From: a virus
Virus record (IMG/VR): IMGVR_UViG_3300009506_000019
Coordinates: 102,062 to 166,061 of that record
DNA length: 64,000 nucleotides
Direction: 5' to 3' (one strand)
The notes under the pieces are model-generated. The model saw nothing but the letters and a program-made list of their open reading frames with translations. It made no database searches and had not been told where the DNA came from. Numbering within the stretch: the first letter of the stretch is position 1; each line of letters starts with the position of its first letter. Of the stretch, positions 17,055 through 52,540 are shown piece by piece. The position numbers and the translations under genes were made by a program.

Positions 17055-17815
17055 GTCTGCCCAGCTGTACGCCTTGTGTCAATGGTTAATTCTTGAATCT
17101 GTGTTGGGAGTTCTGACAGCGGCGGTACAACCTCCTGCACTGTGAACGACATCGAATAGTCGCGTGTGAACGGCTTGTCTGCATTCTCAGAAAATTCAAG
17201 TACATTACTGTAATGACCAATCAGATAGATTTGAACTGGTATACCAACAGACGCATACATAATCAAAAACTCATTGCGTGTGTTATCATCCAACAACATC
17301 GCTTCCCTGGTAAGCGCCCAAAGATTGTGCCAAATGAGTAACTTTCTGTTGGCTCCGGTGTTATATCCTCCCTGAGTAGAAAACAAACCACGATCGGTGG
17401 TTACGTCGCCTCTGATATCGAGATTTCCAGTGTTTCCTCTGAAGTCCAGAGTGAGGATATCGTTGTTCTCACCCTTTGAATTTGTAAAATGAAAGAATAC
17501 ACTACCTTCTTGTGTGTCTCGCTTGGTAATGCGTTTTGGCTGACGAAAGTTAATACTGTTGGGATTTACAGCCATCTCTATTGAGATGAGTTCTCCACCA
17601 GGAGCTGACAACGGATTGGTAGTAGACAAAAATTCAAGTGCACTGGCTGTATTTTCGGTTCCGGAAATTCTTGCAGATGGATCAATGCCTCCAGTACGCA
17701 ATCTCTTCAAAGAAGTAAATGTCATTGGAACACGGTTTGGGTCCGTGAACGATTTTCCGCCCTCACCAAATATTGTTTGACCGAGGGCAGATGTAAAATC
17801 AGGTATAAGCGTCAT
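17051..17815 (-). CDS. Baseplate tube-initiator-like protein
   Basis: MAVNPNSI...ITKRDTQEG...LDFRGNTG...FSENADKPFTRDYSMSFTV motifs; TAATG-coupled to TMP. Confidence 0.65.
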   Translation of the reverse strand: MTLIPDFTSALGQTIFGEGGKSFTDPNRVPMTFTSLKRLRTGGIDPSARISGTENTASALEFLSTTNPLSAPGGELISIEMAVNPNSINFRQPKRITKRDTQEGSVFFHFTNSKGENNDILTLDFRGNTGNLDIRGDVTTDRGLFSTQGGYNTGANRKLLIWHNLWALTREAMLLDDNTRNEFLIMYASVGIPVQIYLIGHYSNVLEFSENADKPFTRDYSMSFTVQEVVPPLSELPTQIQELTIDTRRTAGQT

Positions 17816-20025
17816 TACGGTGCCTCTGGTAAGCCCTTCTGGCCTTCCCAACCTAATATCTGGAAGACAACTTTGGCTTTGATTTTGCCCTTGCCAGGCA
17901 CATTCACCTCAGTCATCTGTTCTTCTCGTTGTTCAACATTTAACATCTGAGAACGCAACTTGTCGCCAACCATTCCCCCAATAACTTTATCTTGTTGTAG
18001 ACGTTGATATACAGCCTCTTCTCCCCTGCCGGTTTTTCCTTCTTCTTTCTTGTAAAGCTGCATGAGTTCTGTATATAAACCTTCTTGACGAAGAATCATG
18101 CTGTCATTATAGTTGCGTAATAGCACACCAATGGCGCTGGTCTTTCTTTCTCCAATGCGTGCCTTGCCTCTTCGCCCTATGTCTTCTAACTCACTTCTGG
18201 TTACTGTCTCTGTAATATCAGATCCAAATACACCAGTGTCCTCACCAGAAGAGAATTCATATGCTTCTCCACGCTTGATTTGATCTTCTCTTTGCTTGAT
18301 TCTTTTTAGTTTTTCGTCATATGATTCATACTTACCACCAGCACCTGTCATAAGGGTGCTGAGAATTCCCATTCTAGCGCCGCCCATAACTTCTTTGGCA
18401 CCGCCCATCATCATCTTGATAGCTCGAGTGCTCATTTCTGCTGATTGAGCTATCATCTCGCCTGAAGCTTTTTTGGCAGCCTCATCGCCAAACAAGCCCA
18501 TAGACAAATATTTTATGCCATATACGATCGATTGCAGTCCAGCGATGGTTGCGCCGAGAAGACCAGCACCAATCTTGGCTAGTCCATTTTGAATTTTTAA
18601 CAACGAGCGTTGGAACGATGATGTTTCAGCAGCTCGATCAACAAATGCCCTGTTGAATTCTTTTTGATGATTTTTTATTGCGCCTTGTATATCGTTGGTT
18701 TTAGCTGCTTCTTTGCCAACTTCCACAATGGCTTTAGATCCCTCAAAACCAAAGCCCATTTTTTCAAGGAAGAATCGTTGCTCCTCTACTGTTCTTCCAT
18801 TCTCTTGTGCAAGTTTGAGAAGCTCACGTACAGACTCCACAAACATACCGCCTTCTTCAGTGGTCTGTCCTCTACCACCAAATCCTTCGCGTAGAGCATA
18901 ATATGCCTCAAGGCCAGTTTTTGGCCCCCCACCACCAACACCACGAGCTGTCATCCTTTCGCCCAGAACAGCAGAAAGGCCGACACTCATACCCGCCAGA
19001 CCTTGAGTTACTTGACCAATAGCACGTTCTGCATATCCAGCCGCAAACTGCTGAGTAACACCAGGCATATTACGTTCGAGTAATTTTTGGAATCTGAGTT
19101 GAGCTTCTGCTACTTCTTCGATATCTACACGTTGTGTGCGTAGAGCCTGAGCAGATCTCATAATGGAACCAGTAAATGCAGCAACACTGGTACCAGAATC
19201 TCTTGCAGCCAAACCAATAGAAGCTATGATCCTAGTTGATTCTTGAGCATTTTGATTGAAATCTTTGACCAATTCCCCCATCTGACGAGCAGCTGTACCA
19301 GACGCCTGTTTGAACAAAGAATCAATTGCCATCGAGGCTTCTAAAATAGATCCTCGAGACCCTTTGATTGGTTCGGAAAACTTACCTTTTACTACACTTT
19401 CTATATCTATTCCGGCCTGCGCGAAAGCTGCCGCCGCACTTGCTGCTTCACCAGCAAGTCCTGTTGGCCCCTTGCCAAGCATTACGCCAAGACGACGAAC
19501 GTCCCGTGAAATGAGGGACATCTCTGCGCGGCCAGCCTGACCAGCTTGTTGAAAAACACGGCCAACAGTAGTACCCATGGCCCGGACTTCTTCTTCGCGC
19601 TTACCGCCCAGAACCATGAGCCCAATCAACCCACCAAATGGAAGCTCAGATAGGATAGAGCCCTTGAGCTTAGCCATGCTATTTTGGATGCCCATAAATT
19701 GTGCTTGTTGAGGGAGCATCTCTCCGATGATTCCCTTAACACCACGTTCGCGACGCATCTTTGCAACAGCTTCCTCATATGCCTGACCGATAGATTTGAC
19801 TTTCTTTGCAGTCTCTTCTGATGCTGTTGCTTGCTCTTTATTGATATCCTTGATGCCTTCGACCATACCAGCATACGCCTGCTTCATATAGTCTGATTTC
19901 TCAATGGTAGTGTCGTGCCACTGATCCATGAGGTCTACGGCATCTTCTAGGCTGGATGTGAATTCATCCAACCTATCTTTGAGATCACCAAGATCCAGAT
20001 CTACTTTGGCTTTTACATCAGGCAT
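17815..20025 (-). CDS. Tail tape measure protein
   Basis: ~736 aa, helical, Ala/Gly-rich, directly after the G/GT chaperone pair. Confidence 0.85.
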   Translation of the reverse strand: MPDVKAKVDLDLGDLKDRLDEFTSSLEDAVDLMDQWHDTTIEKSDYMKQAYAGMVEGIKDINKEQATASEETAKKVKSIGQAYEEAVAKMRRERGVKGIIGEMLPQQAQFMGIQNSMAKLKGSILSELPFGGLIGLMVLGGKREEEVRAMGTTVGRVFQQAGQAGRAEMSLISRDVRRLGVMLGKGPTGLAGEAASAAAAFAQAGIDIESVVKGKFSEPIKGSRGSILEASMAIDSLFKQASGTAARQMGELVKDFNQNAQESTRIIASIGLAARDSGTSVAAFTGSIMRSAQALRTQRVDIEEVAEAQLRFQKLLERNMPGVTQQFAAGYAERAIGQVTQGLAGMSVGLSAVLGERMTARGVGGGGPKTGLEAYYALREGFGGRGQTTEEGGMFVESVRELLKLAQENGRTVEEQRFFLEKMGFGFEGSKAIVEVGKEAAKTNDIQGAIKNHQKEFNRAFVDRAAETSSFQRSLLKIQNGLAKIGAGLLGATIAGLQSIVYGIKYLSMGLFGDEAAKKASGEMIAQSAEMSTRAIKMMMGGAKEVMGGARMGILSTLMTGAGGKYESYDEKLKRIKQREDQIKRGEAYEFSSGEDTGVFGSDITETVTRSELEDIGRRGKARIGERKTSAIGVLLRNYNDSMILRQEGLYTELMQLYKKEEGKTGRGEEAVYQRLQQDKVIGGMVGDKLRSQMLNVEQREEQMTEVNVPGKGKIKAKVVFQILGWEGQKGLPEAP

Positions 20026-20728
20026 CGTCGGTATCAAACGTCACTTTCACGTCCCGTCGTGACTTGTGACGCTTTTTCTCCTCTTCAATTTGTTGCTCTA
20101 CCTCTTGCTTTGCTACTTGCCTTTCAAGTGCAGCCTGACGCTTTTTCTGCTGAATTTCTGCGCCATCAACACTATGATGAGCCGTTTCCTTCAACGGCTC
20201 CTCAATAATTTTAACTCCCAATCTACGAAGCTCTTGCTCTCTGCCAGGTGTAAACCATTCGTTCAGTTGCTGATCTAACTCCTCATCTACTTCAAACAGA
20301 GGAGCCATATCACCTAAATCTTCCCCCTTTGCGATGGCTTGAGACATTGCCTCAAATTCATCGTCATCCATAGCAGCCTGAACCTGCTGATCTGCATCCA
20401 TCTGCTCGAACATATAGCCAAGCACTTCCCTTCTTGCTGTCATGAGAGACAGTGGGACAATTCGTTCTTCTGTCTCACCGTCCTTTTTCGGTAGCATGTT
20501 CAAACCAAGTAAATTAACAAGGATGTTTTTGAGAGCCTTTAATACTTGGTTCGCTATCTCTGCTACCTCTTTCTCCTTTTCTTGTTCGCTCTCCCGCAGC
20601 AGCATGTATTCAAACAGCCACTGAGCGTTGGTCATCTTTCCTACATCTGGGTTGTTGACGAGGATTCCTTTTCGGGAGAGGACGTATCCTTTGATTCGCC
20701 ACCAGGAATCCCCGTCGAGGAATTTTTT
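20018..20728 (-). CDS. Tail assembly chaperone T portion (reached by -1 frameshift)
   Basis: The -1 frame is open from the slippery site (KKFLDGDSWWRIKGYVLSRKGILVNNPDVGK) into MTNAQWLFEY of ORF 20018..20635. Confidence 0.8.
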   Translation of the reverse strand, partial: KKFLDGDSWWRIKGYVLSRKGILVNNPDVGKMTNAQWLFEYMLLRESEQEKEKEVAEIANQVLKALKNILVNLLGLNMLPKKDGETEERIVPLSLMTARREVLGYMFEQMDADQQVQAAMDDDEFEAMSQAIAKGEDLGDMAPLFEVDEELDQQLNEWFTPGREQELRRLGVKIIEEPLKETAHHSVDGAEIQQKKRQAALERQVAKQEVEQQIEEEKKRHKSRRDVKVTFDTDDA

Positions 20729-21213
20729 AGGCCATCAATCGACTCCTTCCTCTGCCTACTGATTTTTTGATATTCAGCAGCCAGATCGTCGATGACCGGC
20801 ATTCCCAATTCACCCAACCACACATAAAGCTGGTTCATCTGCCAGGTACGTTGACCATACCGAGACATGGTGAATTGTTTCTTTGTGTCCTCGTCCATGC
20901 CATCCGGAAAATCAAATAACTCCTCAACTGGCACGCCATCAATGCTTTTGATAGCCGCAGCCAATCTTGATTTCCTATATGAGGAGATTGCCTGTGGGGT
21001 GGAATCGGTTTGCATGAAACCATCAGCCCACATTTCCTCATCGGAATTGATGGTGGTCATATGAAACTTGTGACCAGCAACCTCAGCAGTTGCCTCAAGC
21101 TCATGACCAGCAAGTTGTTTTTGAATGTCCAACAGCGCCGCATGTCGCTTTGCTATCGGTAGACTGGTAAGAACGATACCCTCGTCCTTCTCTTTCTTCT
21201 CTTCGTTAGCCAT
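20641..21213 (-). CDS. Tail assembly chaperone G
   Basis: AAGGAGG RBS before ATG 21213; AIKSIDGVP motif; lies between tubes and TMP. Confidence 0.8.
   Translation of the reverse strand: MANEEKKEKDEGIVLTSLPIAKRHAALLDIQKQLAGHELEATAEVAGHKFHMTTINSDEEMWADGFMQTDSTPQAISSYRKSRLAAAIKSIDGVPVEELFDFPDGMDEDTKKQFTMSRYGQRTWQMNQLYVWLGELGMPVIDDLAAEYQKISRQRKESIDGLKNSSTGIPGGESKDTSSPEKESSSTTQM
20722..20728 (-). other. Programmed -1 ribosomal frameshift heptamer A AAA AAT
   Basis: CTA AAA AAT in the chaperone G frame fits X XXY YYZ; the -1 frame matches the downstream ORF. Confidence 0.8.
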
Positions 21214-21245
21214 TATGGCCTCCTTCAAGTGAAGGGTAAAGTTAC

Positions 21246-34358: not shown

Positions 34359-34774
34359 TACGAACCCTGCGTGTTAAAATCGCGAAGCTCTTTGGCAAAT
34401 TCTCTCACATCCCAGAGTGATCCACCGATTGGTGGTGCCCCAGCATTTGCAAACCGAAGTTGATATTTATCTCTCACAGGCTGTGGGGAAGCTGTTGGTT
34501 CTGGTCCCGGATCAACCAACGAATAACCATAAAGACCAGGAGCGGCAACTGCGCCAATTTCAGACATCGCGAGTGGTGTGGGAACTCCCAAGGTATCAAT
34601 AAAGGCAGCCCCATCGAAAAAGTAACCATCAGACACACGACGTATTTCTACAGTCGGAGACTGAGCGGTCACAGGAGCCCCTGTAGTCTCATTGATGATA
34701 GACAGCAGAATCTCAACAGTTGATTCGTATAGGTGCTTCTTTGTGTCAGCCACTACTTGGAGCATCTTGTTCAC
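34358..34774 (-). CDS. Small Ig-like virion protein
   Basis: TTGAPV...DGYFFDGAAF...PGLYGY; paralogue of 26881..27273. Confidence 0.5.
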   Translation of the reverse strand: MNKMLQVVADTKKHLYESTVEILLSIINETTGAPVTAQSPTVEIRRVSDGYFFDGAAFIDTLGVPTPLAMSEIGAVAAPGLYGYSLVDPGPEPTASPQPVRDKYQLRFANAGAPPIGGSLWDVREFAKELRDFNTQGS

Positions 34775-35111
34775 CTGCCATCTCTGGAGCGCCTAAAATA
34801 GACACGCTTCCAGTCTCAGCGTCAATATCCACCTGCTCTATGGTAACGCCGCATTGTCTCAACTTCGCGTCGAATCTTCCCTTCCAGATCTTCAGGTGAC
34901 CTTCTTGTTTCAACATCTCTCCCTTAGCCACCTTAATCTCGTTCTCGAAATTCTTGATCTTCTCTCCCTCCAGTGCCAACCGAAGCATGATGTTCTGCAA
35001 CTCTATGCGCTCTTGCTGATCGAGTTGCGGAATTTTCACCAGCTTTTTCTCCGGTTTCACTGGTTTTTTGCGGTTTCCCCTTCTTGCTTTCTTCTTGATA
35101 GCTGAGGCCAT
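34746..35111 (-). CDS. Basic coiled-coil hypothetical protein
   Basis: 121 aa, GGAG RBS, ends VDIDAETGSV. Confidence 0.5.
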   Translation of the reverse strand: MASAIKKKARRGNRKKPVKPEKKLVKIPQLDQQERIELQNIMLRLALEGEKIKNFENEIKVAKGEMLKQEGHLKIWKGRFDAKLRQCGVTIEQVDIDAETGSVSILGAPEMAGEQDAPSSG

Positions 35112-35467
35112 AGCAAAGCTCCTGTGGCTAGCCCTCCTGGTATTGTTACATACCAGGGTAAATACAACACTTCCGTTGAAATAGTCACATTCAGGACTAT
35201 TGTTAGCACCCCTATACCAACCAAGACAAGATGCCTATACGGTACCCATTCTATCCACCGATTGGTACTCTTCCAAAAATGTATCCACCAGTGTCCGAGA
35301 ATGGTAGCTCCAACATATGGAGCAAACCACAATCCATCCAGGGATTCCCAATCACGCATGGCCGCACTGATGCTGTATCCCAAAAGTTCAATCACAACAT
35401 CAAACAAAACAATAGCCACAATGATCGCAATAATGGACCATTTGACTATCTTAATCAGCTTGTCCAT
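35057..35467 (-). CDS. Membrane protein with ~4 TM helices (holin candidate)
   Basis: Four hydrophobic segments and a basic C-terminus; likely start MDKLIK at 35467. Confidence 0.5.
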   Translation of the reverse strand: MDKLIKIVKWSIIAIIVAIVLFDVVIELLGYSISAAMRDWESLDGLWFAPYVGATILGHWWIHFWKSTNRWIEWVPYRHLVLVGIGVLTIVLNVTISTEVLYLPWYVTIPGGLATGALLWPQLSRRKQEGETAKNQ

Positions 35468-35612
35468 TTTTGCCCTCATTTATCTTTTCAATGGTAAGAT
35501 CTATGAGTTCTGACAGGTGTTTCTTGTCAGCATCAGAAATGTCTGGGTTGCTTCTGATATTTATGCCGATTCTTTCGACTAGCTTTTTTGCGTCTTCTAA
35601 TGAATTTGCCAT
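35451..35612 (-). CDS. Small 53 aa hypothetical protein (below the track cutoff)
   Basis: MANSLEDAKKLVERIGINIRSNPDISDADKKHLSELIDLTIEKINEGKNGQAD fills the gap and overlaps the next gene. Confidence 0.55.
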   Translation of the reverse strand: MANSLEDAKKLVERIGINIRSNPDISDADKKHLSELIDLTIEKINEGKNGQAD

Positions 35613-35613
35613 C

Positions 35614-36087
35614 TTACTTCTCCAGAGCTTGTGTTGCTAAATAAGTAGTGCCGAATACTACAGCCCCACCCACCATTAAACCATAAATGAAAGTCGCTTT
35701 GGGACTCTCATACCATGACAGCTCTGGCGGATTGAGATCCGGAAGATGCTTCATCGCTGTGTCAAACATGCTCCTATTGAGATTGGAAAGATCGAGATAT
35801 GATTGATTCGAAAGTTTATATGCATCAACCGCAGACTGCAGAGCTTTAATCTGCACGTCCTGATTGTCGATAATATCGAGAGATAACTTCAACTTGGTAG
35901 ACACCAAGTCAAGCAGAAGCTCGGCGTCTTCTTTTGGAAACCAAACGCCTTCCTGACCTTGATGTTTGAGTGGAACGGACTGAATGCCCTGAAGTTGCTT
36001 GCGGATTTCTTCTCGATTCAGCTTCTGTCCAAGGGCAGGAACACTAAATGTCGAGATGATTAAAACGATCAGAAATTTCATCGGCAT
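35614..36087 (-). CDS. Signal-peptide, coiled-coil, C-terminal TM protein (spanin-like position)
   Basis: MKFLIVLIISTFSVPALG/Q signal; C-terminal FIYGLMVGGAVVFGTTYL. Confidence 0.5.
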   Translation of the reverse strand: MPMKFLIVLIISTFSVPALGQKLNREEIRKQLQGIQSVPLKHQGQEGVWFPKEDAELLLDLVSTKLKLSLDIIDNQDVQIKALQSAVDAYKLSNQSYLDLSNLNRSMFDTAMKHLPDLNPPELSWYESPKATFIYGLMVGGAVVFGTTYLATQALEK

Positions 36088-36382
36088 CCATCCCTTGGCT
36101 CTCGTATTTCTTTTGGAGATCGCCCTTTTGCTTCGAGATCGCCTCGCCAGTTTCCTTGGCAATCTTCTCAGCCTCCTCGGCCTTTATCTTACCGGCCTCA
36201 GCTTGAGCCTTGGCAGTGGCTGCCTTATCCTGCAAATCCTTGACTTTGTTCTGTACGAGTCTCTCCAAAAGTAGGGCCGTCACCCTTTTACGAAGCTTTT
36301 CGTTGGCTCCGACCAGCACCAATAGGACAATGAGCCCTACTGCTATCAAGCCGAAGACTACCCATCTGACGTACTTCTTCAC
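36044..36382 (-). CDS. N-terminal TM plus coiled-coil protein (i-spanin-like)
   Basis: GTG start at 36382 overlapping the upstream stop; VRWVVFGLIAVGLIVLLVLVG TM, then Ala/Lys/Glu coil. Confidence 0.5.
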   Translation of the reverse strand: MKKYVRWVVFGLIAVGLIVLLVLVGANEKLRKRVTALLLERLVQNKVKDLQDKAATAKAQAEAGKIKAEEAEKIAKETGEAISKQKGDLQKKYESQGMDADEISDRFNHLDI

Positions 36383-36747
36383 TGACCCTCTTCTTCTTTT
36401 TGACCCCTGCCGTAGTAGGCACCTGCAGCCATATTCACACCCTGAAGACCCAATAGGCCCCACAGAGTATAAAGCATGGAATTTGGAATTGGGTCTGTGA
36501 CCGTAGCCGTTTCTGCCACTGCCTCAGGCTTGACTACCCACAGAATGATCATCACCACGAATAGTACCACACCCATGATGATTGATACCAACTTCTGTAG
36601 CTTCGTCAGCGATACGGCGAGATGCTTTTCGCCTTCAGCGTTGGTCTTGGTCGTCATGATCAAAGCGCCAAGCCACTTCCAAGCCTGGTGTTTGGTGGCA
36701 TCAGCAACTGCTGTCAACTTGCTTTCGGTCTTCTCTTCTGGCATCAC
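36379..36747 (-). CDS. Two-TM membrane protein (holin-like)
   Basis: 122 aa, two hydrophobic helices, charged C-terminus. Confidence 0.5.
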   Translation of the reverse strand: MMPEEKTESKLTAVADATKHQAWKWLGALIMTTKTNAEGEKHLAVSLTKLQKLVSIIMGVVLFVVMIILWVVKPEAVAETATVTDPIPNSMLYTLWGLLGLQGVNMAAGAYYGRGQKEEEGQ

Positions 36748-37136
36748 GCACCTCCTGGATCGGCTGCAGCCATCTGATACACCGTGACATTCACCGGGTT
36801 TGCGCCATTATTGGTGATCAAGACATCTGATTTTGCAGCAAATGGCTCAAATACTGCCCCTTTTTCTTTGTGCATGCCACGAGTCGGTGGCCTAAACTCT
36901 TCTTGAGGAACTTGAAACACCTTGGTCATACCAGGAGCAGCAATGGCAGCAGCGCCACCATCATTTACTCCGGCAAAACGTGGCTGAGCGCTGACATTGA
37001 TGGTGCCAGCGCCCGCCACGTGTGCCCAGACTTGGTAGTGCCGGTATGGTGTACCGGACTCGAGCGTGGCCGTGGCTGATTCTCCATTGGCAAGTCGAAA
37101 CGTCTTGATGTTGCATAGATACTCAGTCAGGGCCAT
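36744..37136 (-). CDS. Small beta-rich virion protein
   Basis: 130 aa, GAGGTG RBS. Confidence 0.5.
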   Translation of the reverse strand: MALTEYLCNIKTFRLANGESATATLESGTPYRHYQVWAHVAGAGTINVSAQPRFAGVNDGGAAAIAAPGMTKVFQVPQEEFRPPTRGMHKEKGAVFEPFAAKSDVLITNNGANPVNVTVYQMAAADPGGA

Positions 37137-37144
37137 AGCTCACC

Positions 37145-38086
37145 TCATCCTGCTGCTTCAGCAGCTTGTTCTTCGGCCTCTTCCTGCTCTTGGACGAGGC
37201 GTCCCATTTCCATCTTTGCCCACTTCTTCACGGTCTTGTAGTACCCGTGGGCTCGGATGTGCTCGTAGTCATCAATCTTGAGATTCGGAATTTCCTGCAG
37301 AGCTTCGAGAAGATCAGTCGCAGGCATGCGCTGGTTCTCTTCCAACTCCGCCTTCACCTGATTGCAGAGATGGAGTACACGAGGACTGATGACCTCATCC
37401 TCTGACACCAACTCGCTCGGAGCAACGCGCTGACGCTCGCCAAAGCGAGCGGCACCACCAGGGCCTGTTCCCTTTTCGATGACCTCGTGAATGGGCGCTG
37501 GTTTTTCATCGGTGACGTTTTCTCTCAACGTCTTGTCCGATGTGCGACGACGCTTTTCTTCAGCCATGTCGATCGCAGCGTCCACATCAGGATCTCCGTC
37601 TGCCGTCACCATGCCACGAGCCTTTGCTCGTTTGGCGTAGTACGCCTCATACTCCTCTTGAGAGAGAAGGTTGAGAACCGGAGGTCTGCGACTCAGCAAC
37701 TTCCGAAAGTCCATCGAATTCTTGATTGCGATGAACGGAATGTGCTGTGTCAGGTTGATGGGATCCCTGATGGATGGAATGGTGAACCCCTCGACGCGAC
37801 CCTCGCCCATGTTGAACTCGAGCGAAAGTTGAGCATTCGAGATGTTCTGCACGTAAACGTCCCGCTCCTCTCTGAAATACTCTGTGAAGTTTCTGACTGC
37901 CATGTTCTTTCTCCTGATCGAGGCTGCGGACTTTGGATGGAGAAGCTGGATGGCAAACGGGTCTTTGGAGAAGACTCGGGCTTTGCCTTCCTTGATATAC
38001 TTCCGCGCCAGTGCTGGCCTGGCATACTCCAAGAATCGCTTCTCGGAGTCTAACACCATTACTTCTGCGGAAGGCCGCTTCGCCAT
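37145..38086 (-). CDS. PLMP/RRXRR-like N-terminal domain fused to a phage head-region protein; internal in-frame start at 37903
   Basis: VMVLDSEKRFLEYARPALARKYIKEGKARVFSKDPFAIQL matches the IscB N-terminal pattern; AGGAG-N7-ATG at 37903. Confidence 0.75.
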   Translation of the reverse strand: MAKRPSAEVMVLDSEKRFLEYARPALARKYIKEGKARVFSKDPFAIQLLHPKSAASIRRKNMAVRNFTEYFREERDVYVQNISNAQLSLEFNMGEGRVEGFTIPSIRDPINLTQHIPFIAIKNSMDFRKLLSRRPPVLNLLSQEEYEAYYAKRAKARGMVTADGDPDVDAAIDMAEEKRRRTSDKTLRENVTDEKPAPIHEVIEKGTGPGGAARFGERQRVAPSELVSEDEVISPRVLHLCNQVKAELEENQRMPATDLLEALQEIPNLKIDDYEHIRAHGYYKTVKKWAKMEMGRLVQEQEEAEEQAAEAAG

Positions 38087-38282
38087 ACACAGGCCGTTCC
38101 TCTTTGTTTGTGTCGCCGAAGCAACACGGGTCTTTCACCCACCTTGTCCTGCTCGCCCGGCTTATTCCGGACGAGGAGACAGTTTGTACCACCCCGAAGG
38201 GCAGCCTCTCTGCCGAAGCAGAGGTAAAACCCGGCAGAGCAGCGGTGGAACCACTCTGCCGGGTGTGAACTACCTCAGGCCG
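38087..38282 (-). ncRNA. Structured intergenic RNA element (six hairpins, three UUCG loops) between MCP and the PLMP-domain gene
   Basis: Stems at 38110-38127, 38128-38140, 38145-38181, 38188-38205, 38208-38223 and 38221-38276; G-U pairs and C(UUCG)G loops favour the minus strand. Confidence 0.65.
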
Positions 38283-38284
38283 TA

Positions 38285-39586
38285 CTACTTGTGGCCCTTC
38301 GCAACCGCACGGGCGTTCGGGATACCGAAGCCGATGATCTGACCGAAAGCCCAGCCCTTGACCAGGCGACGGTGCGAGAACATGTTGAACGGCTCGGAGA
38401 ACAGCTCGACGCGGACGCCCATCTCACCGAGGTACTCAGAACCGGTGACCGCATAGAACGTACCCGCAGGCACGACCTCTTCGACACCGGTACCAGCTGC
38501 CGTGATGATCTGAGCATTGAGGATGTTGCCGATGTACCCCGCGAGGATCAACTCACGCTCGGTGACCGGATCCACGTTGGTGGACATCGTTTTGACAACA
38601 TCGGAAAGCTCGGCACGGTTGATGAGGAATTTCTCCACCATCAAGCGGTGACGCTCAACCTGGTAGCGAACGTCCTCGAAAGCCGAGATACCGAGAGTCG
38701 CGAAGATCGTCTCGGCGTTCACGGTGACGGCTGCGCGGTCAAGCAGCGAGAGACCACGCTTGTCCTCTTCCAGCTCGATCTCCTGACGGGCAGTGTCCTG
38801 AGCACGATCGAGGACATCGTAGTTCATCTGGTAGATGTCCTCGATATCCACGGTCGGGAAGGCCGTGACCTTGAACTCGGAAGGCTGGATGAAACGACCA
38901 TAGAGCCGAGACTCGATGGACTGACCATCCTGACCAACCACCCACGCGGTGGAACGAACGTCCTTCGCGATACGGAACAGCTCGCCCTGGGCGAGTGGCC
39001 GTACGCGGTAGACCTTGCGAGCCCACCCCTCGTAGTCGATGATGTCCTTGATCGGGAGCAACAGCTCCTGGCCGACGATGGCGAAGCCTTCACCGGTCGG
39101 ATCTTGCATCGCGGATGCGAGAACCTTGCGGCGATCCTCGGCGGGCATCTGGTTGGACGCCTCACGATAGAAGGTGCCTGGGGACGCCTTCTTCGTGACG
39201 GTGTTCAACAAGTAGGCGATCTGTTGCAACGCGTCCTTGTCATCGTACGCGTTGACCTGACCGGTCTTGTCGAACATGCGCTCCGACAGCTTGGTGTTGC
39301 CGACTGCCTGACGAATGCCGTCGCGGGTCACGTCGCCAGCGTAGGCGGTCGGGTTGAACTGACCGTCTTGGTCCCAGACCTGCTCTTGCTGACGATCAGT
39401 GAAATGTTGGCGGCTGTGTGCGGCCACACGTTCCTGGTCCACCTGATGCTGCTGGACGGCCTGCGGTGTGACCGAGTTGGCCATCATACGCCGCTGCTCT
39501 GGCGTTGGTTGAGCCGGAACCGGGACCTGCGGACGCGCCGCCGCTCCGGCTGCAGCAATACGTCGGTATGGATTCTGCACCTTCAT
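38285..39586 (-). CDS. Major capsid protein (HK97 fold) with N-terminal propeptide
   Basis: PIKDIIDYEGWARKVYRVRPLAQGE...DVLDRAQDTARQEIELEED...GFGIPNARAVAKG; strongest codon bias in the window; AAGGAG RBS. Confidence 0.9.
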   Translation of the reverse strand: MKVQNPYRRIAAAGAAARPQVPVPAQPTPEQRRMMANSVTPQAVQQHQVDQERVAAHSRQHFTDRQQEQVWDQDGQFNPTAYAGDVTRDGIRQAVGNTKLSERMFDKTGQVNAYDDKDALQQIAYLLNTVTKKASPGTFYREASNQMPAEDRRKVLASAMQDPTGEGFAIVGQELLLPIKDIIDYEGWARKVYRVRPLAQGELFRIAKDVRSTAWVVGQDGQSIESRLYGRFIQPSEFKVTAFPTVDIEDIYQMNYDVLDRAQDTARQEIELEEDKRGLSLLDRAAVTVNAETIFATLGISAFEDVRYQVERHRLMVEKFLINRAELSDVVKTMSTNVDPVTERELILAGYIGNILNAQIITAAGTGVEEVVPAGTFYAVTGSEYLGEMGVRVELFSEPFNMFSHRRLVKGWAFGQIIGFGIPNARAVAKGHK

Positions 39587-39624
39587 TGTTGGAATCTCCT
39601 TGTGAAAAGTCTCAAAGCTCTCAA

Positions 39625-39674
39625 AGGCAACGAGCGGCGAACCCGGTTAAGGGCTCGCCGCTGCCGGATTGCCT
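39625..39674 (-). promoter_or_regulatory. Strong hairpin in the MCP leader
   Basis: AGCGGCGAGCCC-TTAACC-GGGTTCGCCGCT, extended by AGGCAA/TTGCCT. Confidence 0.55.
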
Positions 39675-39675
39675 A

Positions 39676-40461
39676 TCAGGTCACAACGACAGGATCGCCA
39701 CCCATCCGGACACCGAGGAACGGATCGTCGGCAGACGGAACTTGGATGACATGACCCACGAAATCACCCTCACCAGCGTCGTTGGTGAAGAGACCTGCCA
39801 AAGCGGGAGTTGCCCCACCGCAGTACAGGTTCTTTCCAACGCCAGTCATCGTGTACGCACGCGAGGTGTCGTATTGCGATGTGAAGAGGATGGTCGCATC
39901 CGTGATGACTGTGATGCGGCTATCCGCGATGGTCACGTCATCGTTGCGGTTGAAGAAGTTTTGTCCCTGGAACTCGAGGTCCCTGGAACTCAACTCCCAG
40001 GTGTAGGTGACCCACACCGTGGTCGCAACCGGGATGCCGCCAGTGCCCACTTGTGTGACGGTACCGTTCACGGCCGAAACCGTGTAGTCCGTCGTCACCG
40101 TGTAGGCGGTGCCTGCCAGATTCGGCATGTCACGGATCTGGAGGTTGCTGACGTTGGCATGCTTCAGGTTGAACGTTGCATCGGCGGCTGGGAACGAGAT
40201 TGCCTCATCGACCTGAGCGGCCTTCAGAGACAGCGCCTTGTTCCACTTGGCCACGCCAAGAACGGGCTTGCTGACGCACGTGATGATTTCACCAGCATCG
40301 TCTTGTGAAACCAACATCCCTTGTTCAAAACTTGCGGCTTCTGCAGCCTTCCAGATGCCTGTGTCCTGCAGAATGACGCACCGACCGAGGTCCAGCCCAC
40401 GTGGGAAAATGTCCGACTGGAATGATCCCAGACGAGGGCTATCAAGTCCCACTGCACCCAT
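39676..40461 (-). CDS. Capsid decoration/cement protein
   Basis: Between scaffold and MCP; ITVITDATILFTSQYDT...GHVIQVPSADDPFLGV; AGGAGG RBS; high GC3. Confidence 0.7.
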   Translation of the reverse strand: MGAVGLDSPRLGSFQSDIFPRGLDLGRCVILQDTGIWKAAEAASFEQGMLVSQDDAGEIITCVSKPVLGVAKWNKALSLKAAQVDEAISFPAADATFNLKHANVSNLQIRDMPNLAGTAYTVTTDYTVSAVNGTVTQVGTGGIPVATTVWVTYTWELSSRDLEFQGQNFFNRNDDVTIADSRITVITDATILFTSQYDTSRAYTMTGVGKNLYCGGATPALAGLFTNDAGEGDFVGHVIQVPSADDPFLGVRMGGDPVVVT

Positions 40462-40516: not shown

Positions 40517-41839
40517 TCACGCTCCCAAGCTACTGCGGCTTGAAGCAACCTTTGTTGTCCCAACAGCCTTTCGAATCGCATCGCGCTTGTTGTCTCGCGG
40601 CGAGCCGTGGACCGAGGGCTCTGAGTCGCTTGATGTCAGCTGCAGATTGCCTGCCGCAGCTCGTTGACGAAGCTCATCGTTTTCACGAGAAGCAATGCGT
40701 GCAGACGGAACTGGTTGAGTCGGCGGTACGATCGCAATCATGTTCTTGAGGTCTGCTTCGATCTGCATGAGCGACTCATCGCTCATCTTCATCACCTCGC
40801 CGGTTCTCTCAATGAGACCGTCGATGTATGCTTCCCATGCTGGTTTGTCTGTGCCTTCAACCAACGGCTCGTTGATCGAAGCTTCGACCAGATTGACCGC
40901 CAAGGCATCGTCCATCGGCTCGTACTCATATCCACCACCAAGTGGACGTGGATTGAGCAAAGCTTCAGTCATCGCCTCTTTGATCGGAGAATGCTCGAGA
41001 TTCAAAGATTGACGACGAGCGACAATCTTCATGGCCCGCACAAAGCGATCGGTGAAGGTATCGAAGAATTGCTTCTTCTCCTTCTCAATCTCAGCGATCT
41101 TGGCCTCCAACCGCTTGTTATACAGAGCCTCGAGTCGAATAGCATGCTTGCGAGCATCGGCCGTATCGATCTCGGCCTTCTTGTCGTCCTTGTCGTCCTT
41201 CTTCTTGTCCTTCAGGTTCTCTGGGAACTTGCCCTTCGCAGCATGCTTCTCTTTGTGATCGAGCGTGACATCATCGAGCGTGCTCTTGTTCATGTTGAAT
41301 TCCTCACGCTCGTCACGTTGGTCCGTGTCGTGCATCTCGGTGACAGACAGATCGCTCGGATTGCGATCATGCTGCTCGTCTTCGAGATCGGTCTCTCGAC
41401 CTTCGAGAACATCAACACCCTTGTAGTCCTTGGTTTCGTGTCTCTCCTGTGCATCGGTCTCTTCACCGGCACCCGTGGCACTGGCTGGAGCACCAGGACG
41501 TGCCTCTTGAGTGTCTTGATCTGCTTGTTCCACCACGGAATTGGTGTTGATGCGGTCCTTGTTCAACATGTCGTCCATGTAATACTCGAGGACCTGAGCG
41601 AGGCGAGGACCAACGATGGCATTAGTGCGGCGAATGGTCCCACCCATACCGTGCTCGGCAATCATGGTGAGCACATCCTTGGCCAGCTCTTGCTTTTCCT
41701 TGCCAGCAACCTTGCTGTCGTTCGGAACCCTGGAGGGTTTTACGACAAACAACGTACCTTCTTTGTCGAAGATACGAACATTGCCAGCTTCCGTGATTTC
41801 TGCCTGCAGATGCTTGTATGAACCAGCAAAGCGAAGCAT
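40517..41839 (-). CDS. Nested in-frame scaffolding protein
   Basis: AGGAGGT at 41846-41852, 6 nt before in-frame ATG 41839 (MLRFAGSY), right after a Pro-rich linker. Confidence 0.65.
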   Translation of the reverse strand: MLRFAGSYKHLQAEITEAGNVRIFDKEGTLFVVKPSRVPNDSKVAGKEKQELAKDVLTMIAEHGMGGTIRRTNAIVGPRLAQVLEYYMDDMLNKDRINTNSVVEQADQDTQEARPGAPASATGAGEETDAQERHETKDYKGVDVLEGRETDLEDEQHDRNPSDLSVTEMHDTDQRDEREEFNMNKSTLDDVTLDHKEKHAAKGKFPENLKDKKKDDKDDKKAEIDTADARKHAIRLEALYNKRLEAKIAEIEKEKKQFFDTFTDRFVRAMKIVARRQSLNLEHSPIKEAMTEALLNPRPLGGGYEYEPMDDALAVNLVEASINEPLVEGTDKPAWEAYIDGLIERTGEVMKMSDESLMQIEADLKNMIAIVPPTQPVPSARIASRENDELRQRAAAGNLQLTSSDSEPSVHGSPRDNKRDAIRKAVGTTKVASSRSSLGA

Positions 41840-43207
41840 CGATGGACCTCCTGAATCTTTGGTTTTTCCGTTATTCGAGCCACGCTTCGGCGGAGGAGCA
41901 ACTCCCATAGCTTCAGGAGTAAGTTGCTGCCCCGGACCTGCAGGCGTGAGGCCCATTTCTTCCGGAGTAAGTTCTTCGATGGGGGTACCAAGAGCTGGAG
42001 CCTCTTCCAAAGGTTCTCCAGACTCGATCTCTACCCCACCACCTTCACCAACATTAATATTGACCGTAACACCAGGTTCCTCTTCACCTGGCATCTCAGG
42101 CGCTCGTGGAGGAACTGCTGGGGCTGCGGGTTCTTCGCCTGGTGCAGCTGGAGGAGGCGGTGCCACCTGCGCAGTCTTCTGGAGGCTGGCAAATTTCTCC
42201 TCGATAGACTGCTCCAGCTGCCTAACCTTCGCCTGAAGCATCAGAATCTCAGACTCATTGCGAAGCTGATCGTCCTTCTCTAGCTGCGCAACCTTGGCAG
42301 AAAGCTGGAGAATCTCATACTGCTCAGCTTTGACATCGGCCGGATCATGCACTCGACTATATTCGTCGAATACCACACCCTCACACCACTCAAATGCCTT
42401 CGCAACTCTTCGTGGTTTTGCGGCCGTTTTGTCTTTGCTGTCGTGACTGATAATAAATGCGATCGGATTGAAATCCGGCTCGCTGTCATCGTATTCTTTA
42501 CCCTTGTTGCGTGCGATGTGGTTGCAGAACTCGCTACGCGTGTAGGCTACCTTGCCGCACACATTGCATCTGGTGCGAATACAGGAGCAACCCATTGATC
42601 CATTCTTGAGAATAGCATTTTTGACGCCATTGGCAAATGCTGGATCTTTTTGAGTATCAATGGCGATGAGCAACTCAACGAATTCGTCTTTGACGACCTC
42701 ACCGCACTTGCGGCAATGAATACCTGTCTCCGGATCGCGGCCGTCTTCTGATGCTGTCTTATTGTGACAATTTGGGCACTCATCAAGAGGCGCTGAAGAA
42801 TCGTTGTAGTGTGCGTCAACGATAAAGCCTCTTGCGTTTTTCGGATTGTCAGCACGATGATTGATGTGATGAGGCTTGTTTTCGTAGGTACGATATACCT
42901 GCTTGCCGAGACGATGATCAAATCTCAACAACTCGTGCTTGTGAAATGCGTCTTTGTTCTCGTTCGGAACATTGGATGTGTTACCACGAATGGCTTCGAA
43001 GATGTAATCGCCTGGATTGGGAGAGATATCATACTCATCAGCCAACATTGCGAGCTTCTCTGCCAAGTCGATGGACTTACGACCACTGAGAAACTCACTT
43101 CGGCTCTCTCCTTCATAGGCGGCTGTGCGTGTGAAAGATTCACCCTCAGTCACCGCAACAGCAAGAGTCTCCACCGAGGCGATTTTCACAAAGCCCTTTT
43201 TCTTCAT
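40517..43207 (-). CDS. Prohead maturation protease (HK97/assemblin-type) fused to scaffold
   Basis: NENKDAF, KPHHINH, GFIVDA, GSMGC and FDEYSRVHDPAD motifs; CxxC insertions; long acidic/coiled C-terminus. Confidence 0.82.
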   Translation of the reverse strand: MKKKGFVKIASVETLAVAVTEGESFTRTAAYEGESRSEFLSGRKSIDLAEKLAMLADEYDISPNPGDYIFEAIRGNTSNVPNENKDAFHKHELLRFDHRLGKQVYRTYENKPHHINHRADNPKNARGFIVDAHYNDSSAPLDECPNCHNKTASEDGRDPETGIHCRKCGEVVKDEFVELLIAIDTQKDPAFANGVKNAILKNGSMGCSCIRTRCNVCGKVAYTRSEFCNHIARNKGKEYDDSEPDFNPIAFIISHDSKDKTAAKPRRVAKAFEWCEGVVFDEYSRVHDPADVKAEQYEILQLSAKVAQLEKDDQLRNESEILMLQAKVRQLEQSIEEKFASLQKTAQVAPPPPAAPGEEPAAPAVPPRAPEMPGEEEPGVTVNINVGEGGGVEIESGEPLEEAPALGTPIEELTPEEMGLTPAGPGQQLTPEAMGVAPPPKRGSNNGKTKDSGGPSMLRFAGSYKHLQAEITEAGNVRIFDKEGTLFVVKPSRVPNDSKVAGKEKQELAKDVLTMIAEHGMGGTIRRTNAIVGPRLAQVLEYYMDDMLNKDRINTNSVVEQADQDTQEARPGAPASATGAGEETDAQERHETKDYKGVDVLEGRETDLEDEQHDRNPSDLSVTEMHDTDQRDEREEFNMNKSTLDDVTLDHKEKHAAKGKFPENLKDKKKDDKDDKKAEIDTADARKHAIRLEALYNKRLEAKIAEIEKEKKQFFDTFTDRFVRAMKIVARRQSLNLEHSPIKEAMTEALLNPRPLGGGYEYEPMDDALAVNLVEASINEPLVEGTDKPAWEAYIDGLIERTGEVMKMSDESLMQIEADLKNMIAIVPPTQPVPSARIASRENDELRQRAAAGNLQLTSSDSEPSVHGSPRDNKRDAIRKAVGTTKVASSRSSLGA

Positions 43208-50075: not shown

Positions 50076-52102
50076 CTTCTCATGCCCCCTATACCAGCTT
50101 TAGTAGGGCTGAATAATCTACCCATCTGTCCCATTTGAAATTGCTGGCCACCAATTTCTTCACGCTTCAGACGAGCTTCGCGAGATCGCAATTTAGCACC
50201 AGTAGGCATGATTTGGGAATCCTGACACAAATGGTGAAGATGTACTAATACGACCGCAACGTCGTCAGAATTCCAGCCTCTGCGCTTACCTTTTTGTGGG
50301 TTGTATACTTTTTTGTCGTCAATAGAACGCTCAAGACGTTCCAACTCATAGATACCAACGGCAGCAGGCGATTTGAATGGTGGATCAAGCTCGTCATCTT
50401 CTTGTTCTTTCGGAAGAAGACGAACTCTACCCATCATGCTGTCTGCTACAAAGTTTACAAAATGTTCCGGCTTGATAGACTTCTGTTCAGCCATCACGCC
50501 CGTGTTGCGAATTTGCTGAATAAGTGTAACACTGTTCCAACGGTCAAACTCTACCTTTGCGATCTTTTGACGCTGTTTTTGAGTTTTTATGATATCTACA
50601 CATGCATCAAACCATACTTCCATATCCTCGCTTGGAAGAATACGCATCACCCAATCTACTACGGTGATGTATTCCATTGACAAGTCTTCTAGCTGCTTAA
50701 TCTCAAGATGACCACACGCTCCAGCAAAAGAGTCAAAATTTTGCCCAGCATCAAATACTACAAATCGTGATGCGTCCCTACGTAGGGCACAGTCTGTCAT
50801 CATGGCCTTATGATATCTTTGACCAGTCTTATCAATAAAGGGCATTACCTCTATAACGGCTGTAGGAGCAAGCTCTATATCAATCACTCGCTCTTCAAAT
50901 TTTTCAGGATCAGTGACCAATGGATTTGCAGCTAGAGGAGGCCGTGCGCCAAAATCACGTTCCGTGCCCACAGGATCTTTTTCATACGCCTCGTCGTAAT
51001 ATTCACGCTTCTCTTCAGGATTGAATTCCCAAGTAGCGTAATGAAATGAATACATCTTTTTGATGTTGGTGGACTTATATAAAAGGTCCATACCTTTATC
51101 TTCTACCGAAATTGGAGAAGAGATAGAGGCAATCAAACCTAACCAATTAACGAGCCCATGGTTGTTCACAGCAGATCGTACAGTACGAAGAGAGTTCTCC
51201 ATAACGCGGTAAGCTTCATCAGCACCAAGAGAAGATTCTGTCTGTTTGAAACGACAAAGCTCATCTACGAATGACGCAATACGAGTACGACCGGCGAGAC
51301 CACCAGAGTTAGAGTTCTTTGAATTGAACTTTACATACATATGACCATTTTCAATTTCACGAATGGTCTCTTTATATACCCACTTCTCCATCCCCTCTGG
51401 AGTATCTTGATTTCGTTGTTCTCGTTTCACCCATTTGACATACCTTCTAAACCAGGGTGATTCAATACGAAAGCTCTTATAATAAGCCCAAATCGTATCG
51501 TTTGACTGTACTTCCGTGGACGCAATAAAAGTTACTTCGAATGGCTGCTTCGGCAAAACACCAAAATAATTAGCAAGTTTACATCCTGGTTGATTCAACG
51601 CGATATTAATAAGGCGATGTTCTACGTACGCTCCAATCATGCCAACAGTCGCGGTCTTTCCTGACCGCATGCCAACAATACCATGCAACTGATTGTAGCG
51701 TGCTAGCAAACCATCTTGTAAAAATTCTGTTCTGGTTGTTCCACACTTTGGGCAAATATCATCATTGTACTTTGGCGACCATACAAGAAGATTTTCTGAT
51801 TCTAGATATTCTCTGCCTTTATCCCAACAGTCGATAGCATCTGGACTTATTGGGTTACAGATCGGACAGCGATACTGAAACAAATCCCTCAGCACCTGAT
51901 ACTGCCGCTTGTGTTTGAAAACAGACGGAATATTCAGGTACTGAGGGGAGTGAACAAATTCAATAATGTTTGGGGCAGGAATAGCCAGATAATCTTTTTC
52001 GGGGTCGTGTTTCTCCTGCTGTTGATCAATAAGTACAGAAGATACTATGGCCCCTATAGAAGATTTGATGTCCGCTGATCCGCCTCCGTCAAACACACTC
52101 AA
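50069..52102 (-). CDS. terL: Terminase large subunit
   Basis: Walker A GMRSGKT, Walker B SFVDE, coupling motif ISSP, nuclease acidic motifs FDAG, FDRWNS and SDD. Confidence 0.92.
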   Translation of the reverse strand: MSVFDGGGSADIKSSIGAIVSSVLIDQQQEKHDPEKDYLAIPAPNIIEFVHSPQYLNIPSVFKHKRQYQVLRDLFQYRCPICNPISPDAIDCWDKGREYLESENLLVWSPKYNDDICPKCGTTRTEFLQDGLLARYNQLHGIVGMRSGKTATVGMIGAYVEHRLINIALNQPGCKLANYFGVLPKQPFEVTFIASTEVQSNDTIWAYYKSFRIESPWFRRYVKWVKREQRNQDTPEGMEKWVYKETIREIENGHMYVKFNSKNSNSGGLAGRTRIASFVDELCRFKQTESSLGADEAYRVMENSLRTVRSAVNNHGLVNWLGLIASISSPISVEDKGMDLLYKSTNIKKMYSFHYATWEFNPEEKREYYDEAYEKDPVGTERDFGARPPLAANPLVTDPEKFEERVIDIELAPTAVIEVMPFIDKTGQRYHKAMMTDCALRRDASRFVVFDAGQNFDSFAGACGHLEIKQLEDLSMEYITVVDWVMRILPSEDMEVWFDACVDIIKTQKQRQKIAKVEFDRWNSVTLIQQIRNTGVMAEQKSIKPEHFVNFVADSMMGRVRLLPKEQEDDELDPPFKSPAAVGIYELERLERSIDDKKVYNPQKGKRRGWNSDDVAVVLVHLHHLCQDSQIMPTGAKLRSREARLKREEIGGQQFQMGQMGRLFSPTKAGIGGMRRW

Positions 52103-52488
52103 CCTTGTACTGCCCTTGCTACTCCAGGTGCCATTGCGTTCGCCAACCCAGGAGGCACCGAAGAAGCTGCAGAAATGCCAGAACGAGCGGCTCTGATTTG
52201 AGTCCAGAACTTCTCGTGCGTGTTCACCAATTGAGGATCGACAACCCTATGTCTGCCAATCCATTGAAACTCCCATGTGTCTATGGTAAACGTGTGCATG
52301 ATTGGAGCAAGATTCAGCATGATTTGTTGTTGCTCTTGGGTTTGAGTGGGCAGCACACGCTCTTGAATGGTCAATACCTTTTTCAATACGACAGTGCGAT
52401 TTTCGACTGACTCCTCTTGTACAATACCAAGATAGAAGCGTCCACCTCTGTCCTGGTACATGTACAAATCCTTCTTCTCCTCTGACAT
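52099..52488 (-). CDS. Small Sm-like/SH3-barrel protein
   Basis: GRFYLG...VVLKKVL...LAP...SGI pattern resembling phage Sm-like proteins. Confidence 0.4.
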   Translation of the reverse strand: MSEEKKDLYMYQDRGGRFYLGIVQEESVENRTVVLKKVLTIQERVLPTQTQEQQQIMLNLAPIMHTFTIDTWEFQWIGRHRVVDPQLVNTHEKFWTQIRAARSGISAASSVPPGLANAMAPGVARAVQG

Positions 52489-52540
52489 TTTTCTCTCCTA
52501 TACCCGCGAAATGCGGGACTCCCCAAATGGGGGTAAGTTA

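Follow-up and report, generated by a model that had tools for sequence, protein, structure and literature searches.

Why should a viral gene lying directly behind the major capsid gene begin with the PLMP domain of IscB and IsrB, when no nuclease follows this domain and a densely structured RNA precedes it? The question is raised by a stretch of 64,000 nucleotides (positions 102,062 to 166,061 of the virus record IMGVR_UViG_3300009506_000019), referred to here as the window. Every gene in the window of this 166-kb virus record is located on the minus strand. The features considered below are compiled in Table 1.

Table 1. Coding and RNA features of the PLMP locus and of the related hairpin sites (positions in the window)
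Feature	Position	Strand	Remark
Major head protein gene, 5' neighbour of the PLMP ORF	38285..39586	-	phrog_2522, E 4e-57
H1, long GC-rich hairpin immediately 3' of the capsid stop codon, with UUUU behind it (38226-38229)	38230..38263	-	From the predicted fold
H2, ACC-UCUGC-UUCG-GCAGA-GAG followed by G, operator-like	38206..38225	-	Conserved and covarying
Lineage-specific insert, two hairpins between H2 and H3	38141..38205	-	WIN, L002, L003, L008
H3, GGGU-GAAAG-ACCC, second conserved hairpin	38128..38140	-	GGGN-loop-NCCC
H4, GUGUUGC-UUCG-GCGACAC	38110..38127	-	Close relatives only
Weak, distant Shine-Dalgarno (SD) sequence AGAGGA for the long form	38098..38103	-	11 nt before ATG
Long ORF, 313 aa: PLMP domain, linker and core	37145..38086	-	M1 kept in close relatives
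PLMP domain, IscB/IsrB type, aa 9-56	37919..38062	-	Pfam, PDB profile and fold; median dN/dS 0.12
Internal SD sequence AGGAG	37911..37915	-	7 nt before in-frame ATG 37903 (M62)
Core protein, 252 aa from M62, likely short isoform	37148..37903	-	About half of the database gene calls begin here
Second H2 site, UUUACC-CUUC-ACUU-GAAG-GAGG	21218..21242	-	6 nt before ATG 21213
Third H2-like site, with second hairpin CCCGC-AUUU-CGCGGG	52517..52539	-	Before the 129-aa ORF 52102-52488
Possible fourth H2-like hairpin, long ACC...GGAG	35134..35159	-	Compensatory changes in L004, L007, L008

The PLMP domain and the protein that carries it

The location next to the major capsid gene, which the initial annotation had pointed out, was borne out, since the PLMP ORF directly follows the head protein gene of family phrog_2522. 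Relatives of this head protein were found by tblastn in phage G, Dickeya AD1 and Bxz1, and the genes for a protease-scaffold fusion, the portal and the terminase are all upstream of it. An 896-aa fusion encoded at 40517-43207 (minus strand) has the N-terminus of a head-maturation protease (phrog_18299), weak Cys-rich matches within aa 137-220 to HNHc_6 and IBR, and an extended acidic middle part of low complexity.

Residues 9-56 of the long ORF match the Pfam family RRXRR (PF14239) with 32.5 bits (E 9.7e-8), above the gathering cut-off of 25 bits, the match covering positions 1-48 of the 174 in the profile only. When a profile built from 51 family members was compared with the PDB, the PLMP domains of IscB proteins were matched at E-values from 5e-9 to 1e-4, among them those of TbaIscB (9k30, 5e-9) and OgeuIscB (7xht and 7utn, about 6e-5). 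The AlphaFold model of the 313-aa ORF (pLDDT 82) had IscB or IsrB proteins as its top Foldseek matches throughout. Superposition of aa 7-60 of the model on the PLMP domain of TbaIscB gave a VIA Z of 9.4 and an rmsd of 1.2 Å over 52 aa with 33% identity; values of Z 8.7 and 8.2 were obtained for HfmIscB and DtIsrB, and with OrufIscB included the matches ranged over Z 8.1-9.4 and 1.2-2.0 Å for 51-52 aa. By profile and predicted fold, aa 9-56 are thus confirmed as a true IscB/IsrB PLMP domain, and the two comparisons suggested beforehand, against Pfam RRXRR and against IscB structures, both agree with the domain first recognised from the sequence alone. The tetrapeptide PLMP reads FLEY in this ORF, as had been noticed, and ILSY or FLDY elsewhere in the family, and the Arg/Lys-rich helix HPARARKLLK-GKA is retained. 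In IscB, the tetrapeptide contacts RuvC as well as RNA.

The absence of a nuclease behind the domain, as noticed initially, also held: neither RuvC nor HNH was matched in the 313-aa ORF by Pfam or by fold, the Pfam matches up to E 1 being free of HNH families. A PHROG match named HNH endonuclease covers the PLMP part alone (aa 9-49). In IscB relatives the sequence continues after PLMP with the motif DPGSKTTG, which the phage family does not have, and an RNase H-like fold was not matched in the core by a fold search that mainly covered residues 164-252. No TnpA gene or IS200/IS605 transposon ends were noticed among the neighbouring annotated genes, and the 166-kb genome contains this single PLMP gene, no further copy having been found. 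A gene of Bxz1 annotated as an HNH endonuclease, which follows the related capsid gene (L101 4133-5071), was considered as a possible RRXRR/PLMP protein and rejected by Pfam.

The core resembles, by fold, only uncharacterised proteins of jumbo phages (PaBG, Motura, BcepSaruman). For the whole model as for the core alone, the PDB offered no informative match (generic helical ones only, Z 6.8 or less), and the BFVD, the ESM Atlas and a language-model atlas returned uncharacterised viral proteins only for the core. Bxz1 gp99 and Dickeya AD1 gp136 were also considered as relatives of the core, and profile comparison revealed no relation. The description of this part as a head protein in the initial annotation reflects its position, and nothing was found that shows it to be a virion protein.

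A search of a set of 5.8 billion proteins retrieved 113 relatives of the 313-aa protein. About half have gene calls of roughly 310 aa that include RRXRR, and the calls for the other half or so are roughly 250 aa long and lack it. In the underlying DNA, which was read for 35 viral and 63 metagenomic loci, the short calls proved to be due to the choice of an internal ATG by the gene caller. Wherever a locus extends far enough upstream, the PLMP domain lies in the same open frame, the exceptions being L097, a distant relative that has the core only, and L049, in which PLMP is broken. The median dN/dS of the PLMP segment is 0.12 (25 pairs; 57 distinct sequences), and the segment is therefore translated and selected. 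It could be argued that the domain is a decaying scar of an IscB (IS200/IS605) insertion without present function, which would be a plausible origin of such a fusion and would agree with the broken domain of L049. However, this dN/dS, the 57 distinct intact sequences of 34-78% protein identity, the lack of any remnant of a HEARO scaffold, the integrity of the duplicated and split variants and the operator-like hairpin copies elsewhere in the genome make this highly improbable. The initial annotation had reserved the scar for the case that the domain be absent or decaying in relatives, and it is intact nearly throughout.

These variants concern the domain itself. In L064 and L087 (1990-2260 in each), PLMP forms a separate ORF of about 60-70 aa before the core's own ATG, split off through a stop codon or a frame change, and in L081-L084 a tandem of two PLMP domains, at about 1800-2150 of each locus, precedes the conserved internal Met and the core. 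Split and duplicated variants together show that PLMP works as a separate unit. The proteins P0116, P0119, P0125 and P0165 are standalone PLMP proteins like the small ORFs of L064 and L087. A search with a profile of PLMP only gave 2806 matches at E up to 1e-3 among 1.84 billion representatives, comprising the phage family, IscB, standalone proteins of 60-70 aa of the FLDY type, tandem-PLMP proteins and other fusions, so that nuclease-free PLMP is not unique to the phage gene. Triple and double PLMP proteins, as well as a 366-aa fusion of PLMP to an unrelated region, were seen among P0121, P0148, P0131 and P0252.

Of about 55 non-redundant loci, 53 have the internal ATG, at a distance of 2-14 codons ahead of the conserved core motif NFTEYF. 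Its SD has a mean duplex energy of -7.9 kcal/mol, with 43 of the 53 at or below -6, and the upstream starts have a mean of -5.1 kcal/mol and use GTG or TTG in 20 of 58 cases. The linker residues encoded over the internal SD vary by clade (IRRK, DPRE, SLEG, PKEA); that the SD is kept in spite of this suggests that the RNA signal itself is under selection. Given a strong internal SD and ATG and a weak upstream start, it is likely that a scarce PLMP-core form is made along with an abundant core form.

The leader hairpins and the terminal hairpin of omega-RNA

The 198-nt gap between the two genes (38087-38284) has a folding energy of -103 kcal/mol (z -4.95), and none of 200 shuffled sequences was as stable. 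The claim of about 190 nt of dense RNA structure upstream of the ORF is supported by this z-score, but only two of the hairpins are conserved and most are lineage-specific. Searches of 36000-40000 detected neither HEARO (RF02033) nor any other Rfam family at E up to 1, and a promoter and terminator scan of 37800-38500 called nothing. H1 is terminator-like and was not called by the consensus scan because its U-run comprises 4 U only. Its sequence is variable, and a hairpin occurs at the same place in all relatives. The common plan of the leaders is H1, H2, H3 and the start codon, to which close relatives add further hairpins, some between H2 and H3 and others behind H3. The insert between H2 and H3 is absent from a distant group, where the two are adjacent.

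H2 has the form (U)UU-ACC, a stem of 3-10 bp, a loop that is often GNRA or UUCG, the return stem and G-A-G(G). A finder for ACC-stem-GAG, applied to leaders of 190 nt, located it in 42 of 57 non-redundant phage leaders (40 distinct sequences), against 0.016 predicted from the remaining sequence of these loci. In an alignment fitted to the model, 91.5% of the cells pair, both partners have changed in 7 of 10 pairs, and none of 500 shuffles was as good. In the H2 helix, pairing reaches 99% and both partners have changed in 4 of 6 pairs, and in the H3 helix, for which the relatives have compensatory changes such as GAGC/GCUC and GGAU/AUCC, in 3 of 4. These values have to be read with the fitting of the alignment to the model in mind and with the fact that the seeds were picked with the motif finder; ACC and GAG are invariant in the seeds by construction, and the real test is the enrichment. 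H2 accompanies the PLMP gene: in L004 (3210-3800) and L007 (3220-3810), an ORF of about 195 aa lies between the capsid gene and the PLMP gene, with H2 beside PLMP, and H2 is missing from the PLMP-less L097. The co-occurrence of domain and RNA, which the initial annotation had proposed to check, is thereby observed, as nuclease-free PLMP is kept with the RNA element in relatives with sufficient upstream DNA except L097 and L049.

The protein partner of such a hairpin is known from IscB and IsrB. The PLMP domain of IsrB binds the tandem terminal hairpins of omega-RNA (Hirano et al., PMC9581776), and those of IscB are recognised by PLMP as well (Kato et al., PMC9640706). At the true IscB loci L102 and L103, HEARO matches of 85 and 105 bits end just 5' of an ACC-stem-GAG hairpin; the two hairpins are ACC-GCC-GUAA-GGC-GAGG and ACC-UGC-...-GCA-GAG, and in L103 the terminal hairpin is followed by AAGGGUAACCUUU and AUG. 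Among 80 bacterial IscB loci, 64 were non-redundant, and 49 of these carry the motif no more than 110 nt from the start (0.013 expected), most of the remaining ones having short-stem variants of the hairpin. Models trained on one side were also searched on the other. R1, a model trained only on phage PLMP leaders with H2 and H3 adjacent, placed 6 of its 13 matches at the IscB terminal hairpin, weakly but in the right place. The leader in the window itself escapes R1, as H2 and H3 are separated there by an insertion of about 65 nt. R2, a 23-nt model trained on IscB and searched in 385 kb, had about 10 phage H2 sites among its 22 matches, with weak E-values (0.01-9) that are not significant in 385 kb because a model of this length carries too little information.

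What is conserved in the phage leader is thus most readily interpreted as the PLMP-binding end of omega-RNA, without scaffold and guide. An omega/HEARO RNA as a whole, as suggested initially, it is not, as there is no guide, no scaffold and no Rfam match. The suggestion of a PLMP-RNA module kept without its nuclease stands in so far as H2 has the architecture of the omega-RNA terminal hairpin and the domain is under selection, but what is kept is not the whole omega-RNA. Alternatively, the hairpins may be generic elements of initiation regions or of message stability that have nothing to do with PLMP, which would serve as a protein-protein interface, as it does on RuvC and TI in IsrB. The extensive protein contacts of the IsrB PLMP domain (PMC9581776), the frequency of SD-containing hairpins in general and the roughly 10 PLMP loci without H2 speak for this possibility. 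We nevertheless regard it as quite unlikely, given that the identical ACC...GAG architecture is found at the very hairpin of IscB omega-RNAs that PLMP contacts and that the strand of PLMP which touches RuvC is the one changed (FLEY), whereas the Arg/Lys-rich helix is retained.

Hairpin copies at other late genes and the proposed translational control

Hairpins of the same type precede other late genes. The GGAGG of the second H2 site serves as the SD of a 190-aa ORF (20644-21213), and the site is conserved in 9 of 9 distinct relatives. In the distant group, H3 (GGAGCGAAAGC) abuts the start codon of this gene. R1 finds the site in other complete genomes (G005, E 1e-9; G004, E 2.8e-5). The 190-aa gene is two genes upstream of a 740-aa ORF (17815-20037), which is possibly, judging from size and position, the tape-measure gene. 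The third site precedes a 129-aa ORF immediately before the large terminase gene; its covarying stems are conserved in L184 and L185, and it scores 17.5 bits with R2. The fourth candidate is located inside an ORF with 4 TM segments (35057-35479), where coding constraint is possible, 25 nt before the SD of the gene 34746-35111. Pfam, PHROG and the PDB provided no annotation of the 190-aa and 129-aa proteins, and no close relatives were found with the 129-aa ORF in viral contigs.

The occurrence of the hairpins before the PLMP gene and at least two other late genes points to a translational switch that has not been described so far. Autoregulation, one of the roles suggested in the initial annotation, has to be widened accordingly, as the module is not confined to its own gene; the presence of the same hairpins before at least two others indicates more than simple autoregulation. 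One RNA-binding protein facing several operator-like initiation sites fits a translational regulator better than pure autoregulation. We therefore lean towards the view that the domesticated PLMP-hairpin pair is a translational regulator of its own gene and of other late genes, which we consider somewhat more probable than its negation. In such a scheme, a PLMP domain would have been domesticated without the nuclease and joined in frame to a phage protein of about 250 aa, and the phage would have retained the RNA partner, namely, the terminal hairpin of omega-RNA (H2), usually followed by H3. PLMP would bind the hairpins both in its own 5' mRNA leader and in the initiation regions of the 190-aa gene (start at 21213) and of the small ORF before the terminase. 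At these other sites the GGAG of the hairpin is the SD or lies beside it, and binding would determine the protein output, as at a translational operator. The scarce long form with PLMP would be produced from the weak upstream start and the abundant short core from the strong internal SD and ATG. From these arrangements we infer binding of the hairpins by PLMP and a control of translation through it. The roughly 10 PLMP loci without recognisable H2 count against this translational control, as does the fact that hairpins ending in GGAG are favoured near gene starts anyway.

The position of H2 in its own leader deserves attention in this context. In most lineages, H2 is usually 45-150 nt upstream of the PLMP start and cannot simply occlude that SD. 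In one clade (L062, L080 and L087), the SD and start codon of the PLMP ORF itself are covered in part by an ACC...GAG hairpin, as in IscB, about 23 nt before the start of the PLMP profile. The distance in the remaining lineages, and the fact that H2 starts directly after H1 and its U-run, would agree with an action on the fate of the mRNA: PLMP on H2 and H3 may protect the downstream 5' end after processing or termination at H1, or modulate read-through, thereby setting the ratio of capsid protein to downstream products. Yet the other two sites are without an H1-type hairpin and have their hairpins on the SD or start codon, and in L004 and L007 H2 tracks the PLMP gene and not the capsid gene, so that we judge an effect of this kind to be unlikely. 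A structural ribonucleoprotein is the further candidate. Core subunits would form an assembly to which the long isoform anchors the leader RNA or a piece processed from it, and this RNA would be a cofactor of head assembly or a passenger, loosely like phi29 pRNA. The location of the PLMP gene within the head module is compatible with such a particle, and two isoforms would permit few RNA-bearing subunits among many plain ones. But the split variants make a covalent link to the core unnecessary, regulation accounts better for hairpin copies at the beginning of unrelated genes, and nothing found marks the core as a virion protein; we accord a ribonucleoprotein a low probability.

Translational control by PLMP may extend beyond this locus. 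It is conceivable, though we hold it to be doubtful, that PLMP and hairpin constitute an autonomous, portable RNA-protein module that governs a small post-transcriptional regulon over virion-assembly genes in an entire clade of phages of 170-210 kb, with its own gene, the gene two upstream of the 740-aa ORF and the ORF before the terminase as targets, and that translational control is a general and perhaps the original job of PLMP. The standalone, tandem and otherwise fused PLMP proteins would then mean that translational control, rather than the anchoring of a guide RNA, is general to PLMP, and a remnant of it would persist in the contact that IscB makes with its own SD hairpin. The idea that the phage protein is a relative of the ancestral source of the PLMP domain found no support.

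Significance and known systems

PLMP is the one domain of IscB and IsrB that was lost in Cas9, and we know of no role described for it so far other than that of a structural anchor for the 3' end of omega-RNA. A literature search found no publication describing a nuclease-free PLMP-hairpin pair in a phage. Here, domain and hairpin are kept without the nuclease and selected in dozens of phage lineages, and the hairpin is copied to other genes, which amounts to a natural experiment on the PLMP-hairpin contact as a self-sufficient unit. A domain of 60 aa and an RNA of 20-50 nt are candidates for a new class of phage translational operator and repressor and possibly offer a compact orthogonal RNA-protein pair for engineering. 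The pair is also of relevance to the control that OMEGA elements exert over their own expression.

The closest known systems are those of IscB and IsrB (HEARO, RF02033; 9K30, 7XHT, 7UTN and 8DMB). Their PLMP domain is homologous to that of the phage in sequence and fold, and a hairpin of the same UU-ACC-stem-tetraloop-stem-GAG-G architecture is found just upstream, often followed by a second small hairpin; in IsrB, this terminal hairpin is the contact site of PLMP and carries the SD. The phage protein differs in that it is without RuvC, bridge helix, HNH and TI, and neither a guide or scaffold RNA nor a transposon context was noticed. Moreover, its PLMP tetrapeptide is replaced, the domain is fused to an unrelated protein, and copies of the hairpin stand at other genes. 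IshB, which consists of PLMP and HNH in about 180 aa in the summary of Altae-Tran 2021 given in PMC11610941, is on that description likewise a minimal bearer of PLMP without RuvC, but it keeps the HNH nuclease, whereas no nuclease was detected in the phage protein.

As to the mode of action, phages are known to use translational repressors that act on operator hairpins at initiation sites, such as the MS2 coat protein on the replicase operator and T4 RegA. They resemble the mode proposed here in that a small protein and a hairpin at the SD or start codon of one gene or of several are involved, the protein's own message included. However, they have no sequence or fold relation to PLMP, whose function in the phage is deduced from arrangement and conservation. 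Finally, the TldR proteins are nuclease-dead derivatives of TnpB, domesticated transposon nucleases that are used as regulators. As may be the case for the phage PLMP, a component of an OMEGA system has been exapted for gene regulation in TldR, but TldR keeps the whole inactivated effector and the guide RNA and acts on DNA, whereas only the RNA-anchoring domain and its hairpin survive in the phage, where the target would be mRNA.
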